In this document: positions 17,484 to 43,622 of the stretch, piece after piece
Position numbering within the stretch: position 1 is the stretch's first letter
How the letters are laid out: each line of letters starts with the position of its first letter
Assembly (NCBI GenBank): GCA_021848765.1
Contig: JAJZTU010000003.1
Location: forward strand, 1-43,622
Direction of reading: 5' to 3'
DNA length: 43,622 bases
From: Bacillota bacterium
Lineage (GTDB): Bacteria > Bacillota > GCA-003054495 > Carboxydocellales > JAJZTU01
Notes under the pieces: model-generated
The model's database searches: none
What the model was told of the DNA's origin: nothing
What the model saw: only the letters and a program-made list of their open reading frames with translations
Made by a program: the position numbers and the translations under genes

Positions 17484-17617
17484 AGAATTCACCTCCTCTC
17501 CGGTAGATAGCAAAACTTGCCCAGAGGTAAGTTTTTCCCACCGGAGAGAAAATATGCAGCAGTATCCAATGCAACACGGTGTCACCTCAATTTTTTTAAG
17601 TAAATATAAGTAAATAT

Positions 17618-20973: not shown

Positions 20974-21004
20974 AAAAAAACTCCTACCAGTGATCCGGTA
21001 GGAG
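20974..21004 (-). terminator. Riboswitch expression-platform terminator
   Basis: CTCCTACC-GGATCACT-GGTAGGAG followed by T7. The 5' arm is the 3' end of the aptamer. Confidence 0.88.
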
Positions 21005-21050
21005 CTATCAGCTGTGAAAACAGCGGTTAAGGCGAGCCCCATCGCCTTTG
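20997..21050 (-). ncRNA. Fluoride riboswitch (crcB motif)
   Basis: GGCGATGGGGCTCGCC-TTAACC-GCTG-TTTTCA-CAGC-TGATAGCTCCTAC matches the crcB consensus, with pseudoknot GGGGCT/AGCTCC. Lies upstream of an operon containing crcB. Confidence 0.93.
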
Positions 21051-21067
21051 TCTTTATTTGTTTTATA

Positions 21068-37013: not shown

Positions 37014-37979
37014 TTACAATATTTTCCTGCTATGAAGTACCAAAGCTGCTGCCCCGTAGGAACCGGCATCATTACCCAACCGGGCCCTCACAACCTGCAC
37101 TGAGGAGGCCGGTACTTCCAAGGCCAGTTCCTTTATTTTTTCCCGAATGGGTTCCAGTAAGAGCGACCCGGCCTTAGACACACCTCCACCGATTACAATC
37201 AATTCGGGATTCAGGATATTCACCAGGTTAGCCAGACCCATCCCCAGGTATTTGGCGGTTTCGGCTACCATCTTTTGGGCCAGGGCATCCCCTTCCCCGG
37301 CAGCCTTGAAGATATCCTTGGCCTCGATGTTGACAACATTGGTTAAAGAGCTCTCCTGCCCCTGAGCCAGGGCTTCCCTGACCCGCTTGACCATCCAGGG
37401 CGCCGAGGTCAGAGCTTCCAGATGCCCTTGAATCCCGCAGTTACAGCGCGGTCCCCCTTCCACCAGGATGGTGTGCCCGATTTCACCGGCGCTGCCTGTG
37501 GCCCCGCGGTAGAGGCGGCCGCCCAGGATAAGGCCGCCGCCCACCCCGGTACCCACGGTAATCATCACCATATGCTGAGCCCCCTGACCGGCGCCTTGCC
37601 ACAGTTCCCCCAAAGCGGCAGCATTGGCGTCATTGTCCAGGTAAACCTCTACGGGTAACTTGCTTTCCAACATGGTTTTCACAGGGACATGGCGCCAATC
37701 CAGGTTAGGCGAAAACAGCACCGTACCGGTCGTAAAATCATGATTTCCCGGAACCCCAATACCGATGCCCAGCAGGTCTCCGGTAGTCAGATTCGCCTTT
37801 TGCAGCAAACTCGTGCCGGCCAGGGCCATCCGGTCCACTACTGTCCCGGGACCGGCTTCAGCTTGAGTGGGAAGCTTAGTTTTTTCCAGGAGGGCGCCCT
37901 GAAGATCAAACAGGGCTGCCTTAATAAAAGTACCCCCCAGATCGATTCCAATTACGTATTTTTGCTCAGCTTTAGTCAC
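37014..37979 (-). CDS. ROK-family kinase (glucokinase-like)
   Basis: GIDLGGT, DNDANAAALGE, GTGVGGG and GEIGH..CNCG..GHLE motifs. Confidence 0.94.
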   Translation of the reverse strand: MTKAEQKYVIGIDLGGTFIKAALFDLQGALLEKTKLPTQAEAGPGTVVDRMALAGTSLLQKANLTTGDLLGIGIGVPGNHDFTTGTVLFSPNLDWRHVPVKTMLESKLPVEVYLDNDANAAALGELWQGAGQGAQHMVMITVGTGVGGGLILGGRLYRGATGSAGEIGHTILVEGGPRCNCGIQGHLEALTSAPWMVKRVREALAQGQESSLTNVVNIEAKDIFKAAGEGDALAQKMVAETAKYLGMGLANLVNILNPELIVIGGGVSKAGSLLLEPIREKIKELALEVPASSVQVVRARLGNDAGSYGAAALVLHSRKIL

Positions 37980-37989
37980 CCATATCACC

Positions 37990-38733
37990 TCACACAGCGG
38001 GAACACCCTCAGGAGGATGCTTCTCGCGCCTTAATTCTAAATAGCGGTTAACTTTTTCCACCGAGGTATTAATAACCTGCTCCTCCCTGACCCCAGCCTC
38101 CCGGCAGAGTTTAATAGCTTCCGCGAAACGGCCTACATGATAGGCAAAATGGGAATCGCTTCCGATAACCAGGGGGCAGCCCTTTTCCGCTGCCAGCCTG
38201 GCGATGGTCAAACAATGAGGAGCGCTTCCCTTGCGGGCAGTCCCCAGGGAACTGTTGTTGATTTCAATGGCTATCCCCAAACGGAGACTGGCTGAAACAA
38301 CGGTCTCCGGGTCTACCGGATATTCAGGGTTTCCCGGATGGACAATAATATCCACAAACGGATTCTCCATGGCCCGCAGCAGGGCTTGGGTATTTTGCTC
38401 AATGGTCCCCACAGGAGAGCAAATTGAATGCAGCCCGGCCAGGACGATGTCCATTCTGCGCAGGTAACATTCCGGGAGATCCAGCCCGCCCCGGTTATCA
38501 ATAATGTTAGCTTCCACTCCGGCCAGCACTCTCACTCCGGAGATTTCGGGGGGCAGGACATGGAGATTGCCAAAATGATACAGGTCAGGTCCGCCAGGCA
38601 TGGTAGGCCCATGGTCGGTAATAGCCACCATGGCCAAGCCCCTGCTCTCCGCAGCCCGGGCAATCTCGAGGATAGTGGAGTAAGCATGGCCACTGGCAAT
38701 AGAATGAACGTGTAAGTCAGCCACCAGATGCAT
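37990..38733 (-). CDS. PHP-family phosphatase (YcdX-like)
   Basis: DLHVHSIASGHAYST, TDHGP, HPGNP and GSDSH motifs. Confidence 0.92.
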   Translation of the reverse strand: MHLVADLHVHSIASGHAYSTILEIARAAESRGLAMVAITDHGPTMPGGPDLYHFGNLHVLPPEISGVRVLAGVEANIIDNRGGLDLPECYLRRMDIVLAGLHSICSPVGTIEQNTQALLRAMENPFVDIIVHPGNPEYPVDPETVVSASLRLGIAIEINNSSLGTARKGSAPHCLTIARLAAEKGCPLVIGSDSHFAYHVGRFAEAIKLCREAGVREEQVINTSVEKVNRYLELRREKHPPEGVPAV

Positions 38734-38763
38734 GGAAAACCTCCTTTTTATAGTGTTTATAGG

Positions 38764-39831
38764 CTACTCTTCTACCAGCTTGCGTTTCAGCAAATCAATC
38801 ATGTTTACAGGAGTAGGGTCAATCCCGTACAGGGTAGCCAGGTAAACACTGACATAATCCCCTATGTATGTCAGGGAAAAGGTGCGGGCCAGGGTAGTGT
38901 TGCCTCTGGAATGAACCTCAGTGATACCGGAGACTGCTTTTCCCATGATAGTTTTACTGATTTCCATGCGCTTCTGGACCCGGGGATGGTCAGCTTGATC
39001 CCGCAGGATGATAATTTCCAGATTATTAAGCAGTTGGCCGGGGGCCTCAAAACCCACGATTTCGTTGTGGTTCATTTCCGGCAGGACATTCCAGTAAGCT
39101 GCGGCCTTGGCATTTTCGTTAATCTGGCCCTTCCAGCGGGTGGCCACAACCTCTGTGGTTCCTGATGCGCCGTAGATGACCGGAATTTTATTATACACCT
39201 TCAGGGCGATTGTTTTGGCCTGGTTATTTTCCACCGGGCTTTCCGGCTTGAGAACTTCCCGCAGCTCTTTCAGGTTGCTAATGGCATCCTCGATTTCTGC
39301 GCTAGCATCAGGAATCAGGCCCAGGCGTTGCAGCACCACCACAGTGGGAATAAACAGGTAGCCGGTAGCGGCCCGGGGAGAAATTCCTCCCGGGATGGTT
39401 ATCACGGGCACCCCGTCATTGCCGGCGAGTTCTTTCAGCTTTCCACCGGTGGTAATTACCACGATTTTTGCCCCTTTGGCAATAGCCTGCTGATAAGCGC
39501 TTAAGGTCTCCTCGGTATTGCCGGAAAAGCTGGTAGCAAACAGCAGGGTCTGCGGACCCACAAAATTAGGCAGGGTATAATCACGGTTGACAATCACCGG
39601 GATTCCCGCTTTATCCCCCACATATACCCTGAGCAGGTCACCACCAATAGCCGAGCCTCCCAGGCCGGTGACCATAATCTGGGTAAAGCCCTGATAGCCC
39701 TGGGGAAGCCCGGCTTCCTTGGCAATGGCCAGGGCCTCAGCACACTGTTCAGGCAGCCTCCAGACGGCCTCCAGCATTTTCCCCGGGTCATTGCCGAGAA
39801 TGGTTTGGACGCTGTTAAGTTTTGAATGCAT
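38764..39831 (-). CDS. Bifunctional phosphoglucose/phosphomannose isomerase (SIS)
   Basis: GLGGSAIGG, SFSGNTEET, QINENAK and PEMNHNE motifs. Confidence 0.94.
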   Translation of the reverse strand: MHSKLNSVQTILGNDPGKMLEAVWRLPEQCAEALAIAKEAGLPQGYQGFTQIMVTGLGGSAIGGDLLRVYVGDKAGIPVIVNRDYTLPNFVGPQTLLFATSFSGNTEETLSAYQQAIAKGAKIVVITTGGKLKELAGNDGVPVITIPGGISPRAATGYLFIPTVVVLQRLGLIPDASAEIEDAISNLKELREVLKPESPVENNQAKTIALKVYNKIPVIYGASGTTEVVATRWKGQINENAKAAAYWNVLPEMNHNEIVGFEAPGQLLNNLEIIILRDQADHPRVQKRMEISKTIMGKAVSGITEVHSRGNTTLARTFSLTYIGDYVSVYLATLYGIDPTPVNMIDLLKRKLVEE

Positions 39832-39881
39832 AGTAAGTACCTCCTTATAAACTTTTGTTTTTATAAATAATGTGGCCCGGA

Positions 39882-40536
39882 TAATTACGACCGGTCGGAT
39901 ACCTGTCCCGGTTCGGTGCTCTTAGTTCCGTACCTAGCAGCTCTAAGCTTGGTGTGCTAATAAAATCGACCAACCTTGCTGATGGGGCATCCGTGCCCCC
40001 AGCAAGGTTGCCGGCGTCCATGCCGGCAAGGTCGATTTTATTGCACACCCGCGCTAAGAGCTGCTACGGTACTCCACCATGAGCACCTAAACCGGGACAG
40101 GTATCCTCCCTGACCAAAGTTTCTGCGTGGTTGCCGCACACTCTCACCGGGAAACGGATAGCAAAACGGGGTAACTCTGCCTGATAAGGGACTGGACCGG
40201 GGCACCGTTCGGGATAACTGTTTTATCAGGCCGGGGCTACCGGTCCCTGGTAACTTATTCGCCCAGGCCGGGGCTACCTGCCGGTGAAGGAGCGACTCGC
40301 GGAGTACGGTAGCAGTTCTTAGCGAAGGTGCGCAACAGAATCGACCTTGCCGGCATGGACGCCGGCAACCTCGGCGGGGGCACGGACGCCCCATCGCCGA
40401 GGTCGGTCGATTCTGTTAGCGCACCAAGCTTAGAACTGCTCTGTGCGGAGCGTGGAGCTCCAAACCGGCAGGTAGTCCCGGCCGGAGACAAAAACGAGTC
40501 CGGCCAGAGCAAAACAGGTATCGACCCGACGAATTA
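39882..40536. repeat. Composite palindromic element: two inverted copies of a ~210-bp branched hairpin
   Basis: Copy 1 spans 39897-40106 (17-bp perfect outer stem) and copy 2 spans 40266-40483. The 132-bp cores align without gaps at 113/132. Imperfect terminal inverted repeats at 39882-39906 and 40514-40536. Confidence 0.85.
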
Positions 40537-40569
40537 GCTTAACAGGCAGTAAAGCGTGCAACATTTCCC

Positions 40570-42534
40570 TCACGGCCTGATCTCCAAAACCTCCTCCGCA
40601 TAGGCCCGCAAAACCTCAGCCACTCCCCAGGCCTGAGCATAACACCCCCTGGGCTCATGGGGATGGTCCCCGTCGAAGATTTCGGATATGCTGCCTACAC
40701 CGTGGTCAAAGAGCTGGCCTTTGAAGGGCTCAATCAGCTTTTCCGCTACCACCTGGCTTTCCTGAGAATAGTCATTGACCTTGCGGTAGGCGCTGATAAA
40801 GGGGCCAATCAGCCAACTCCAGGCTGTCCCCTGGTGATAGGCCCCATCCCTTTGTAAGCGGTCTCCCCTGTAATGGCCTTTGTACTGGGGGTCCTCCGGG
40901 GAGAGGCTGCGCAGCCCATAAGGAGTGTATAGATGCTGCCAAACCTTACGGACGATTTTGACCTCTTTGGAGTGGTCCAGCATGGAAAAGGGGAGCGCAA
41001 CAGCGATAATCTGGTTGGGGCGGATGGAACCATCCTTGCGTTCCCCAATGACGTCATAAAGGCACCCGGTAGAATCATTCCAGAATTCCTGAATAAAGCT
41101 CTTCCTCACTTTTTGGGCCAGTTGATTGTAGGCCTTGGGATTATCGTCAAACTTCTGGGCCAGCTTCTCCATTACCCGCAGGGCATTATACCACAGGGCA
41201 TTTATCTCCACAGGCTTACCATGCCTGGGTGTCACTACCCAATCATCTACCTTGGCGTCCATCCAGGTGAGTTGAAGCCCGTGACTGCCTGCGGAAACCA
41301 GACCGTCTTTATCTACGTGGATATTGAAATGGGTCCCTTTCAGGTGGTATTCCACAATTTGCTTTAACACAGGGTAGATGATATCCCGGATAAAGTCGTA
41401 GTTGCCGGTGTAGCGCAAGTATTTATGCACAGCATGAAAAAACCACAGGGAGGCGTCCACAGTATTGTAATCAGGATTTAACCCTTCGTCGGGGAACCGG
41501 TTAGGTATGAGTCCGTCCTTACAATAGCGGGCAAAGGTGGTAAGTATCTCCTTGGCAGCATCAAAGCGTTTGGTAACCAGGGTCAGGCCGGGCAGGGCGA
41601 TCATAGTATCCCGGCCCCAGTCGGTAAACCACGGGTAACCGGCAATGACTGTCTTAGTCCCGGTTGATTCCCGCCGGACGATGAAATTGTCTGCCGCCAC
41701 CACCAGACGGTTGATAAATTCATGGCCATAGCCGGCCTTTTCCACCAGTTGGGAAAGGCGCTTTTCTTCCTGAACCTGCCAGAGTTGGCTGTTGACAGGC
41801 TTAACCGGCTCAGTTGAAGCCACAATCGCAAAACTGCCGCCGCCGGTTAGTTTTACTTCAAACTCACCGGGCATAAAGTGGTCTTCCCATTTGTCCTCCC
41901 CCCGGCTTTCCTCAACGATATAATGGAGTCCCTCAAACCAATAGCCCGGGCCCTGGCTATACCGGGCGCCCTCTCCTGCCAGATAGAGCTTGGGAGCGCC
42001 TGGAAAGGCTTCAATTACCACTCCGTTTCCTTCCGGCTGCTGGTAAAAGGGCCACTGGTTACGGCGGGTGAGCCAGTGGTAATCCCGGCAGTTAATTAAG
42101 GGAGTAATTTTCAGATCTATTGCTTTATCAGGACTGGTATAGACGTTGTACCGGATTACAGTGGTATTCCGGCCGTGGACCATGAACACGATTTTTTCAA
42201 TTAAAACATCTTGGATGCTGTACAGGTAAGTAGGCAGGGGGTGGGTACTAAATTGCTGCAAATAGCGGTGGCCCTGAGGATACAGCCCATTGGCCGTATC
42301 ATTTACTCCCAGAGCGAATTCCCGGTTTTCTATGCATACCCGTTCCTCCAGTTTGGCCAGCAGGAGTGTGCGGTCTGTAGGAGGGCGTAAAGCAGCGAAG
42401 AGCAGACCGTGGTACCGGCGGGTATTGGCTCCCAGGATGGTGGAAGAAGCAAATCCGCCCAAGCCGTTGGTAACCAACCATTCCTTTTCAATTGCGCGTC
42501 CGAAATCTTTCAACTCCGCCTTACCAAAAGTCAT
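40570..42534 (-). CDS. Glycogen debranching enzyme (amylo-alpha-1,6-glucosidase)
   Basis: EWLVTNGLGG, AGYPWFTDWGRDT, LTWMDAK and AQAWGVAE motifs. Confidence 0.95.
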   Translation of the reverse strand: MTFGKAELKDFGRAIEKEWLVTNGLGGFASSTILGANTRRYHGLLFAALRPPTDRTLLLAKLEERVCIENREFALGVNDTANGLYPQGHRYLQQFSTHPLPTYLYSIQDVLIEKIVFMVHGRNTTVIRYNVYTSPDKAIDLKITPLINCRDYHWLTRRNQWPFYQQPEGNGVVIEAFPGAPKLYLAGEGARYSQGPGYWFEGLHYIVEESRGEDKWEDHFMPGEFEVKLTGGGSFAIVASTEPVKPVNSQLWQVQEEKRLSQLVEKAGYGHEFINRLVVAADNFIVRRESTGTKTVIAGYPWFTDWGRDTMIALPGLTLVTKRFDAAKEILTTFARYCKDGLIPNRFPDEGLNPDYNTVDASLWFFHAVHKYLRYTGNYDFIRDIIYPVLKQIVEYHLKGTHFNIHVDKDGLVSAGSHGLQLTWMDAKVDDWVVTPRHGKPVEINALWYNALRVMEKLAQKFDDNPKAYNQLAQKVRKSFIQEFWNDSTGCLYDVIGERKDGSIRPNQIIAVALPFSMLDHSKEVKIVRKVWQHLYTPYGLRSLSPEDPQYKGHYRGDRLQRDGAYHQGTAWSWLIGPFISAYRKVNDYSQESQVVAEKLIEPFKGQLFDHGVGSISEIFDGDHPHEPRGCYAQAWGVAEVLRAYAEEVLEIRP

Positions 42535-42667
42535 GGCTTTTCCTCCTTAAGCAATTCTCCTTCTATTTTCCCACCGGGAGAAAATACTATGAGTAACCGG
42601 CTAACCAATCTAATGCGCCAAACAGTTTACCTGATAGCTTTCGCTGGGTTGGCTGTCTTTTCCTGCT

Positions 42668-42704
42668 TAAAATGCAAAATTACCCTCCAGAGGGCAATCT
42701 TGCA
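42668..42704 (-). terminator. Likely terminator after the cytochrome gene
   Basis: TGCAAGATTGCCCTC / GAGGGTAATTTTGCA stem followed by TTTT. Confidence 0.5.
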
Positions 42705-42711
42705 AAGCAAT

Positions 42712-43622
42712 TTAAGAATCCGTTCTATTGCCATGGCACGCACTGCAGAAGTTCTGCTGCTTGTGGCAGGTTGTACAGCTATTGGCTTTTACCTTTGCTG
42801 CTTGCTCATGTGTAGCCACCCAATTACCGGGATGCGGATTATTTTTGGTGTGACAATCAGTGCAAAAGTTTTTTGCCGCATATTTGGCATATGGGTTGAC
42901 CGGATTTTGACCGGAATGACAATACAGGCACTTATTTGAATCCGCCTTGGCCAATTCGCCGTGGCCCTTGGCAAAACCTCCGGGATGCGGGATAGGCAGT
43001 TTGTGGCAATCCGAGCAGTTGTTAGCCCGCTGTCCCGCTACCGGCTTGGCTCCTTGTTTATGACACTTATTGCAGACCTCCGGGTTAGCCTGATATTCTT
43101 CGGCATGGACCTGCAGGAAGTTTTGCTGGTGTGGGATTACGGTCTTATGACAATCAAAGCAGAAGTTTTGATTGGATTTGGCATTGGCCGCAACATTTAA
43201 TGCGGCATTTGCTTCTCCATCCGGTAGTTTTGTGCCACCTTGGGCTAAGTTAAGCTGATGACAATGGTTGCATTCCTTAATGTTTTTCAGAGCGTACGTC
43301 CCGTGTGCCAAAGCCCATTTTCCCTTGGGCTGGTGACTTTTGGGGACAATATCTTTAATTTGGAGATGACAAGAGGTACACTCATTAGACTTTGGCACCT
43401 TAGCCTGCTTATTCTCAAGCAGTTTGTTGGTATGACAGCTTTGGCAGGCCGCCATAACCTGTTTGGCATCAACCTTATCACTATGGCCTACACCCACATG
43501 ACACAAGGTGCATTTGGTTTCAATCTTGTCATGCTTGGGGTGGTCAAAGCCGATATGTACCCGGTTTTTATACCGCTCATCCCTGGTTTTCGCCAATTCA
43601 GCGGCTAGTTCCTGGTTACCCA
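42712..43622 (-). CDS. Multiheme c-type cytochrome (5' end outside the window)
   Basis: 11 CxxCH motifs in the visible part. The reading frame is open to the window edge. Confidence 0.93.
   Translation of the reverse strand, partial: GNQELAAELAKTRDERYKNRVHIGFDHPKHDKIETKCTLCHVGVGHSDKVDAKQVMAACQSCHTNKLLENKQAKVPKSNECTSCHLQIKDIVPKSHQPKGKWALAHGTYALKNIKECNHCHQLNLAQGGTKLPDGEANAALNVAANAKSNQNFCFDCHKTVIPHQQNFLQVHAEEYQANPEVCNKCHKQGAKPVAGQRANNCSDCHKLPIPHPGGFAKGHGELAKADSNKCLYCHSGQNPVNPYAKYAAKNFCTDCHTKNNPHPGNWVATHEQAAKVKANSCTTCHKQQNFCSACHGNRTDS

Follow-up and report, generated by a model that had tools for sequence, protein, structure and literature searches.

The two inverted Y-shaped hairpins located between a phosphoglucose isomerase gene and a glycogen debranching enzyme gene of a Bacillota bacterium are almost certainly divergently oriented copies of the TwoAYGGAY RNA motif (RF01731), in the Bacillota form with an elongated basal stem. 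The best overall explanation is that the element works as a CsrA-binding RNA and spreads in the manner of a non-autonomous mobile element, a reading to which about even confidence is given. Membership of the family, structure, number of copies, strand bias, the turnover from genus to genus and the co-occurrence with csrA are shown, and transcription, binding of CsrA and the mode of spread are inferred. The family (2010), the idea that it acts as a CsrA decoy (2014) and its multi-copy organization in divergent doublets (2026 preprint) were already known, the element is an ordinary family member whose architecture here agrees with what is in print, and its importance as a discovery is accordingly small. 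Some value remains, because the passages on the family in the three papers concerned (PMC2864571, PMC4333381 and Li et al., 2026) report no experimental test of TwoAYGGAY function.

Family Assignment and Earlier Descriptions

The window, that is, the whole stretch of DNA that was analysed, has a length of 43,622 nt and corresponds to positions 1–43,622 of contig JAJZTU010000003.1 (assembly GCA_021848765.1, Bacillota bacterium; Carboxydocellales; JAJZTU01). The genome from which it comes (hereafter G000) is a draft of 374 contigs and 3.33 Mb with 83% completeness. The whole window was scanned against Rfam 15 at gathering thresholds, and three matches were obtained, one to a fluoride riboswitch and two to RF01731. 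The riboswitch (RF01734) lies at 20992–21055 on the minus strand and scores 57.3 bits versus a cut-off of 34. Both RF01731 matches cover model positions 1–168 and exceed the gathering score of 43 bits, with 54.5 bits for copy A (39923–40079, minus strand) and 53.5 bits for copy B (40297–40453, plus strand), and AYGGAY is found in both terminal loops of both copies. With these two matches above the cut-off, the element belongs to a family described in 2010. The preliminary description of this DNA had presented the hairpins as a candidate new structured element without a named family, with the proviso that a match to an already described RNA family would remove the novelty; the Rfam matches therefore remove it.

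The TwoAYGGAY RNA motif was catalogued by Weinberg et al., whose discovery table rates it as not cis-regulatory and whose named taxonomic range for the motif includes Clostridiales (Weinberg et al., 2010, PMC2864571). In Rfam, RF01731 is filed as Cis-reg. Later, TwoAYGGAY was proposed to be a CsrA-binding RNA of Clostridia, in passages that also mention tandem G-A motifs in a TwoAYGGAY stem and according to which the decoy class of CsrB/CsrC and RsmX/Y/Z had until then been found in Gammaproteobacteria only (Gardner and Eldai, 2014, PMC4333381). Recently, the sections of a preprint devoted to the family described many TwoAYGGAY copies per genome in Pseudomonas, where 68.4% of the doublets are divergent with a median gap of 249 bp, as well as repeats at the flanks and, for Bacillota, a basal stem that is elongated; Csr/Rsm sponging together with mobile-element-like expansion is suggested there (Li et al., 2026, bioRxiv 10.64898/2026.09.22.753630).

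Gene Neighbourhood and Architecture of the Two Copies

The doublet occupies a 738-nt intergenic gap, and both flanking genes are on the minus strand. They encode a bacterial-type phosphoglucose isomerase (PGI; 38764–39831, with bact-PGI_C and SIS domains, Pfam E-value 4.9e-61) and a glycogen debranching enzyme (GDE; 40570–42534, with GDE_N and GDE_C domains, Pfam E-value 4.8e-144). The minus-strand gene order over 37014–43596 comprises a ROK-family kinase, a PHP-domain protein, PGI, the doublet, GDE and then a multihaem cytochrome c with c7/c3/MtrC-like domains. The doublet thus lies within a glycogen/glucose gene group. A search with PGI retrieved mainly distant phyla at 41–58% identity, and the nearest named records for the neighbouring gene are from Bacillota; the PGI-based comparison (80 loci) served solely to name the nearest records.

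Boundaries taken from an alignment of 24 copies place the full unit of copy A, which consists of the TwoAYGGAY core and the extended basal stem, at 39891–40114 on the minus strand and that of copy B at 40262–40485 on the plus strand, so that with 224 nt per copy the element extends beyond the outline first drawn for it. Sequence and fold locate the terminal loops of copy A, in the RNA sense, at 40016–40021 (loop 1, AUGGAC) and 39989–39994 (loop 2, ACGGAU) on the minus strand, and those of copy B at 40355–40360 (loop 1, AUGGAC) and 40382–40387 (loop 2, ACGGAC) on the plus strand; in copy B, 27 nt lie from the GGA of loop 1 to the GGA of loop 2. Each unit is followed by a 3′ tail, recognized from conserved 3′ flanks in the alignment and from genome-wide motif counts. 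The tail of copy A (39871–39890, minus strand) is a short repeat motif, in a variant with a 10-nt palindrome where the tail joins the unit, and that of copy B (40486–40537, plus strand) consists, judging also from its sequence, of one full tail repeat and the beginning of a second. Copy B is convergent with the 3′ end of the GDE gene. The 5′ ends of the two copies are separated by a spacer of 147 nt (40115–40261), which is unique in the genome by BLAST and repeats 15 nt of the 5′ end of copy B (40227–40241 matches 40264–40278 as a direct repeat).

A repeat search recovered inverted arms at 39908–40095 and 40281–40468 (188 nt, 81%) with further outer stems, and over the full units copies A and B are only 76% identical. 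The figures given earlier for the cores were reproduced on recomputation: the ungapped alignment of 39935–40066 (reverse complement) with 40310–40441 matches at 113 of 132 positions, and seven compensatory swaps, each of them Watson-Crick in both copies, account for 14 of the 19 differences. The differing core positions are 7, 16, 17, 22, 27, 29, 63, 65, 66, 78, 87, 88, 90, 95, 104, 106, 112, 126 and 132, and of the five outside the swaps, 16 and 17 belong to an internal loop, 78 to a terminal loop and 95 to the junction, while 132 is at the end. Both cores do fold into the Y shape proposed for them, with a long interrupted stem, a three-way junction and two capped arms. Copy A folds at −161.1 kcal/mol compared with a shuffled mean of −76.6 (z = −18.8), and copy B at −174.0 kcal/mol compared with −93.9 (z = −18.4); in neither case was any of 200 shuffles as good.

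In contigs from four public DNA runs, the units stand at roughly 15–25 times the depth of their flanks, and the contigs break at 39885–39891, 40112–40118 and 40262, which are the unit ends. No clean joint skipping one unit or the whole doublet was found in the four runs, the joints being short-sided or repeat-derived, and these contigs accordingly yielded neither an empty site at strain level nor a target duplication.

Copy Number, Tails and Partial Forms in the Genome

RF01731 has 16 matches in G000, of which 12 are above the cut-off. The copy-number search by BLAST that the preliminary description had called for, run with both extended copies, marked 45 places; 24 full-length copies were used, and 21 partial or contig-end pieces were left out, so that the genome holds at least 24 full-length copies. 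Aligned with their flanks, the 24 copies have sharp shared boundaries, lengths of 220–230 nt and complementary termini. With 28 occurrences, the 12-mer of the terminal stem ranks first among all 12-mers of the genome, and the TwoAYGGAY unit is the most abundant repeat of this genome. All copies are intergenic, and the neighbouring genes vary from copy to copy.

On the 3′ side, most units carry the short tail repeat, which also occurs on its own, with roughly 40 motif hits lying apart from full copies, and in tandem arrays with a period of about 45 nt. A 13-mer search allowing two mismatches gave 142 hits outside full copies, mostly chance hits in coding DNA, and the exact or near-exact ones were used. 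In the window, one solo tail motif with at most two mismatches is located near 17537 on the plus strand, distant from any TwoAYGGAY unit. Forms reduced to the basal stem were found at C13:3461–3499, C115:2584–2628 and C353:6503–6560.

Several other elements were met in the same genome. A second repeat of about 240 nt forms a long hairpin (−112 kcal/mol) and is present in about 10 long copies at 80–94% identity, including C217:3187–3440, C230:20490–20737, C1:8648–8875, C176:1191–1426, C359:4537–4771, C170:621–865 and C244:8396–8619. Its loci have no Rfam match at gathering thresholds. Six full copies precede a TwoAYGGAY unit of like orientation by about 50–95 nt, and on C359 short tandem repeats with a period of 24 nt stand at the 5′ edge of the repeat. 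C209:1196–1673 (locus L025) is a TwoAYGGAY shell in which the outer part of the 5′ arm (about 70 nt) and of the 3′ arm (about 55 nt) are intact and the 240-nt repeat, in reverse orientation, replaces the two-hairpin head; the same junction is present on C244:16478–16743. Another repeat family, often found at contig ends (C32:9160, C313:2878, C322:46, C367:569) and having 16-mers that occur 9–10 times, contains a short GC-rich hairpin and may resemble the 3′ domains of a group II intron. At two other loci (L006 1441–1627, L005 1839–2068), a unit has a lysine riboswitch (123.5 bits) at a distance of about 0.9 kb, and another has three tRNA genes within about 200 nt.

Covariation, Conserved Loops and Strand

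Structural analysis was carried out on 36 copies, 24 from G000 and 12 from G001, a relative of the same family and another genus (99% complete); copies of other relatives were left out. RNAalifold on the 24 copies of G000 gave 79 pairs, 43 of them with at least two Watson-Crick types, and two sequential hairpins on one basal stem were obtained in the MFE folds of both copies as well as in the consensus fold of the 36. Across the 36 copies, 97.2% of cells are paired compared with 83.6% in shuffles. Changes on both sides of a pair occur in 57 of 76 pairs, compared with 29.9 in shuffles (0 of 500 reach the observed value) and 10–17 with slid partners, which bears out the earlier claim that the structure is kept despite drift of the stem sequence. 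The capped loops, previously described as the recognised signal, are the conserved part: against a background of covarying stems, the loop GGA is kept in 36/36 second loops and 33/36 first loops.

Counted on the Rfam strand, G-U occupies 91 cells spread over 24 pair columns, and A-C 19 cells over 11 columns (binomial p on columns 0.02). One G-U pair is present in 30 of the 36 copies, and the other strand would read an A-C mismatch there. The excess of G-U over A-C on the Rfam strand and the retention of the loop GGA in covarying stems are new here. Taken together, they point to one functional strand with sequence-specific loops. In the basal stem, conserved purine-rich internal loops were observed, and G-A together with A-G are the commonest non-standard cells (32 in total).

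The main rival is a purely DNA-level repeat: a non-autonomous element akin to REPINs or MITEs, which a transposase acting in trans (HUH/Y1 or other) would mobilize by cutting its hairpin or cruciform, with any RNA being incidental. We consider it somewhat unlikely. The strand asymmetry of G-U and A-C, the kept G-U pair and the conservation of the loop sequence across subfamilies all argue against it. The inner helices speak in its favour: one-sided (G-U) intermediates are nearly absent there although double changes are many, a pattern that would also be expected from DNA-level copying or from few master copies and that weighs against a decoy RNA.

Doublets, Subfamilies and Turnover between Genera

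All full-length pairs are divergent, 4/4 in G000 and 5/5 in G001, with 71–361 nt between the units. A further genome, G008, has a tandem pair, which makes divergent orientation a tendency but no strict rule. At the same GDE-PGI junction, G001 also has a divergent doublet, and its flanking isomerase is 85% identical. In the tree of the 36 copies, copy A groups with the copies on C68 and C217 (91% and 88% identity), and copy B falls in a well-supported clade with C262 (88% identity) and C211 that does not include A; both G001 copies at the GDE-PGI junction belong to a third, G001-specific clade. Pair members usually come from different subfamilies, and the shared GDE-PGI locus has been hit more than once or overwritten.

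The preliminary description had named as its fallback a local duplication with arm-to-arm gene conversion. Such an inverted duplication, homogenized between its arms and without a wider family, would account for copies that are adjacent and inverted. It is refuted by the genome-wide copies and the 36-copy tree and keeps practically no probability: the genome holds 24 full-length copies and 17 other sampled genomes hold more, and A and B resemble each other less than either resembles its nearest relative. Because A and B belong to different subfamilies and their nearest relatives are on other contigs, the pair is not a local duplication.

Occupied and empty sites were compared between the two genera, as the preliminary description had recommended. 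Of 7 G001 loci, 2 are clearly empty in G000, 1 is occupied in G001 and G000 alike, 1 ends at a contig break beside a tail motif and 3 are without clear outcome. The two empty sites, both of them doublet sites in G001, are short intergenic stretches on C2 and C7 of G000, each with a tail-like motif. Divergence of 9/9 full-length pairs, occupation of the same junction by other subfamilies and the two empty sites are new here. Since subfamilies are gained, lost or replaced between related genera, the element appears to spread like a non-autonomous mobile element. Its distribution is patchy, with carriers among 9/61 and 18/151 genomes in two samples and up to 26 matches in one genome. In the larger sample, of 151 genomes across the phylum, a carrier was defined by a TwoAYGGAY match at E <= 0.001, and 16 of the 18 carriers are above the cut-off.

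Much of this would be expected of a DNA-level element as well. It is favoured by the number of intergenic copies scattered over the genome, with their sharp ends and complementary termini, by sites that are occupied in only one of the two genera, by the basal-stem-only forms with the one shell enclosing the 240-nt repeat, and by the short REP-like tails, solo and in tandem arrays. According to the family sections of the preprint, REP arrays occupy a constant position downstream of the motif in Pseudomonas fluorescens SBW25 (Li et al., 2026, 10.64898/2026.09.22.753630), which favours it too. The enzyme involved had earlier been suggested to be of HUH/RAYT type (REPIN-like). This suggestion agrees with the enrichment of Y1_Tnp, which is present in 15/18 carriers compared with 83/151 genomes overall (p = 0.008, uncorrected), but it is opposed by three multi-copy carriers without Y1_Tnp at E <= 1e-10, namely G001 (12 copies), G118 (13 matches) and G144, as well as by the strand bias. 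Nor did the expected linkage to a RAYT/IS200-type gene appear: G000 has three Y1_Tnp matches, on contigs C342, C298 and C324, and none of these contigs has a BLAST match to the unit. In G008, a Y1 gene lies near two copies and is followed by a 374-aa ORF, probably tnpB; the arrangement is that of an IS605-type insertion sequence and speaks against the DNA-level reading. The position of this Y1 gene beside the two copies was taken for chance adjacency. Also against a DNA-level element, no target-site duplication was readable at the two filled-versus-empty comparisons, which span two genera, and plasmid and phage collections gave no match to the unit at E <= 1e-5. No autonomous relative was found.

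The same loci bear on a possible action in cis, in which the element would affect the genes beside it by blocking or terminating transcription, by stabilizing mRNA through its hairpin or as a leader of PGI. Copy A shares its strand with PGI and has its 3′ end 59 nt ahead of the start codon of that gene, the same junction holds a doublet in another genus, all copies are intergenic and the Rfam class is Cis-reg. Against this, neighbours and relative orientation vary (among the 24 copies, 8 have the same orientation as the gene on the 3′ side, 13 the opposite one and 3 stand at contig ends), a barrier needs no conserved loop sequence, the PGI-proximal copies of the two genera are in different subfamilies, and the table of the discoverers speaks for the opposite (PMC2864571). 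A cis function is therefore regarded as very unlikely.

Possible Link to CsrA and the Proposed Decoy Role

TwoAYGGAY carriers were found to possess csrA throughout. In the sample of 151 genomes, csrA occurs in 18/18 carriers versus 103/151 overall (hypergeometric p = 6e-4, uncorrected for kinship), an association that may be weaker than this p suggests, related genomes not being independent. An overlapping first sample had csrA in 9/9 carriers versus 42/61 overall, and the two samples pooled contain 20 distinct carriers, all with csrA. This co-occurrence is new here. It may be indirect, as csrA is a widespread gene of the phylum, present in 68% of the sample, and accompanies flagellar genes. 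In G000, csrA is located between fliW and a flagellin gene on contig C52.

A CsrA-decoy mechanism, with the Rfam strand as the active RNA, is put forward with slightly less than even confidence. The working form would most likely be an RNA of the Rfam strand whose long stem presents two GGA-bearing hexaloops 27 nt apart, and one CsrA dimer could bind both. CsrA dimers bridge two sites, which fits two GGA hexaloops at this fixed spacing. The dispersed copies together would act as decoys for CsrA, the gene of which stands in the fliW-csrA-flagellin cluster. Against the decoy role, a stem of about 90 pairs is not obviously needed.

Signals that could drive transcription of the units were searched for. 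Among the public runs listed for 39000–41500, none is recorded as RNA. No sigma-70-like site was found in 39700–40700, spacer included, and no promoter signal stands at a fixed place across the copies: scores of at least 9/12 were obtained in 5/35 5′ flanks and in 8/35 3′ flanks (35 of the 36 copies; the copy on C35 was left out, its 5′ flank being cut by a contig end). A terminator scan gave only the first hairpin of the element itself on the opposite strand and a weak candidate at 40515–40528, with no U-tract after the stem. Since orientation relative to the 3′ gene is mixed, sense read-through cannot serve all copies.

An RNA of the same strand may also have a partner other than CsrA, with the AYGGAY loops as the binding site of some other protein or RNA. 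The evidence from covariation, strand bias and loop conservation is independent of the partner, the purine-rich internal loops of the basal stem are unexplained by CsrA binding, and the co-occurrence with csrA, if indirect, would leave room for such a partner. The presence of csrA in every carrier argues against it, as would the hexaloop spacing if it reflects bridging by a CsrA dimer. Moreover, no alternative partner gene is linked to the element, the neighbours varying from copy to copy. On balance, a partner other than CsrA is improbable.

The CsrA-decoy proposal can be carried further, to a scenario that we regard as unlikely in its entirety. The units would be selfish non-autonomous elements that insert next to a short REP-like tail motif and favour a head-to-head arrangement with a copy already present. 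Each of their transcripts would offer two high-affinity CsrA sites, and several dozen copies together would constitute the unfound RNA antagonist of CsrA in Bacillota, with gain and loss of copies tuning CsrA activity. To our knowledge, FliW is the known CsrA antagonist in Bacillota, and we know of no RNA antagonist there. If CsrA binding were shown, a gap in the control of CsrA in Bacillota would be filled. For tests of function, G000 and G001 together form a compact natural test set, comprising distinct subfamilies, a junction occupied in both genera by members of different subfamilies, clean empty sites, stem-only forms and a perfect, if uncorrected, co-occurrence with csrA.

Comparison with Known Systems

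With MITEs, the units share a non-coding nature, ends that are complementary to each other, interiors that vary while the termini stay the same, and the occurrence of both filled and empty sites. They differ from MITEs in that neither a target-site duplication nor an autonomous parent was found and in that the interior is conserved for structure and loops. The likeness to REP/REPIN sequences mobilized by RAYT lies in dispersed intergenic palindromes, inverted pairs and tail repeats both alone and arrayed. However, the unit of 220–230 nt is much larger than REP units of a few tens of nt, and only the 3′ tails are REP-sized; pair members here are usually from different subfamilies. Unlike a REPIN/RAYT system, there is no Y1 gene flanked by the repeats, three carriers have no Y1, and the G-U pairs are strand-biased.

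The TwoAYGGAY motif of Weinberg et al. (2010) is described as adjacent hairpins that share a stem, each with an AYGGAY loop, and the core of the present copies is without differences from it. Compared with the 168-position model of RF01731, the genomic unit of about 224 nt extends the basal stem and adds the 3′ tail repeat. The loci in the family sections of Li et al. (2026) resemble those described here in having many copies, mostly divergent doublets, flanking repeats and the elongated Bacillota basal stem. The distance of 217 nt between the two Rfam matches here compares with the median gap given for Pseudomonas, the repeats that follow the motif here have units of about 45 nt in place of the REP arrays of those loci, and the Pseudomonadota extension by three more hairpins and a pseudoknot is absent here. 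The 5′ short-repeat array reported in the same sections is not evident in G000. As a separate observation, the spacer of the orthologous doublet in G001 (L044 1131–1469), upstream of the plus-strand unit, contains several degenerate repeats of about 15 nt, which recall the 5′ short-repeat arrays that the preprint reports in Pseudomonas.

The decoy RNAs CsrB/CsrC and RsmX/Y/Z, named as a class by Gardner and Eldai (PMC4333381), resemble the present element in having GGA in hairpin loops and csrA in the genome. Whereas RNAs of the CsrB/RsmZ type come from one to three genes, the element described here, in which no promoter or terminator is recognisable, has two GGA sites per unit on a stem of about 90 pairs and occurs in dozens of dispersed copies.
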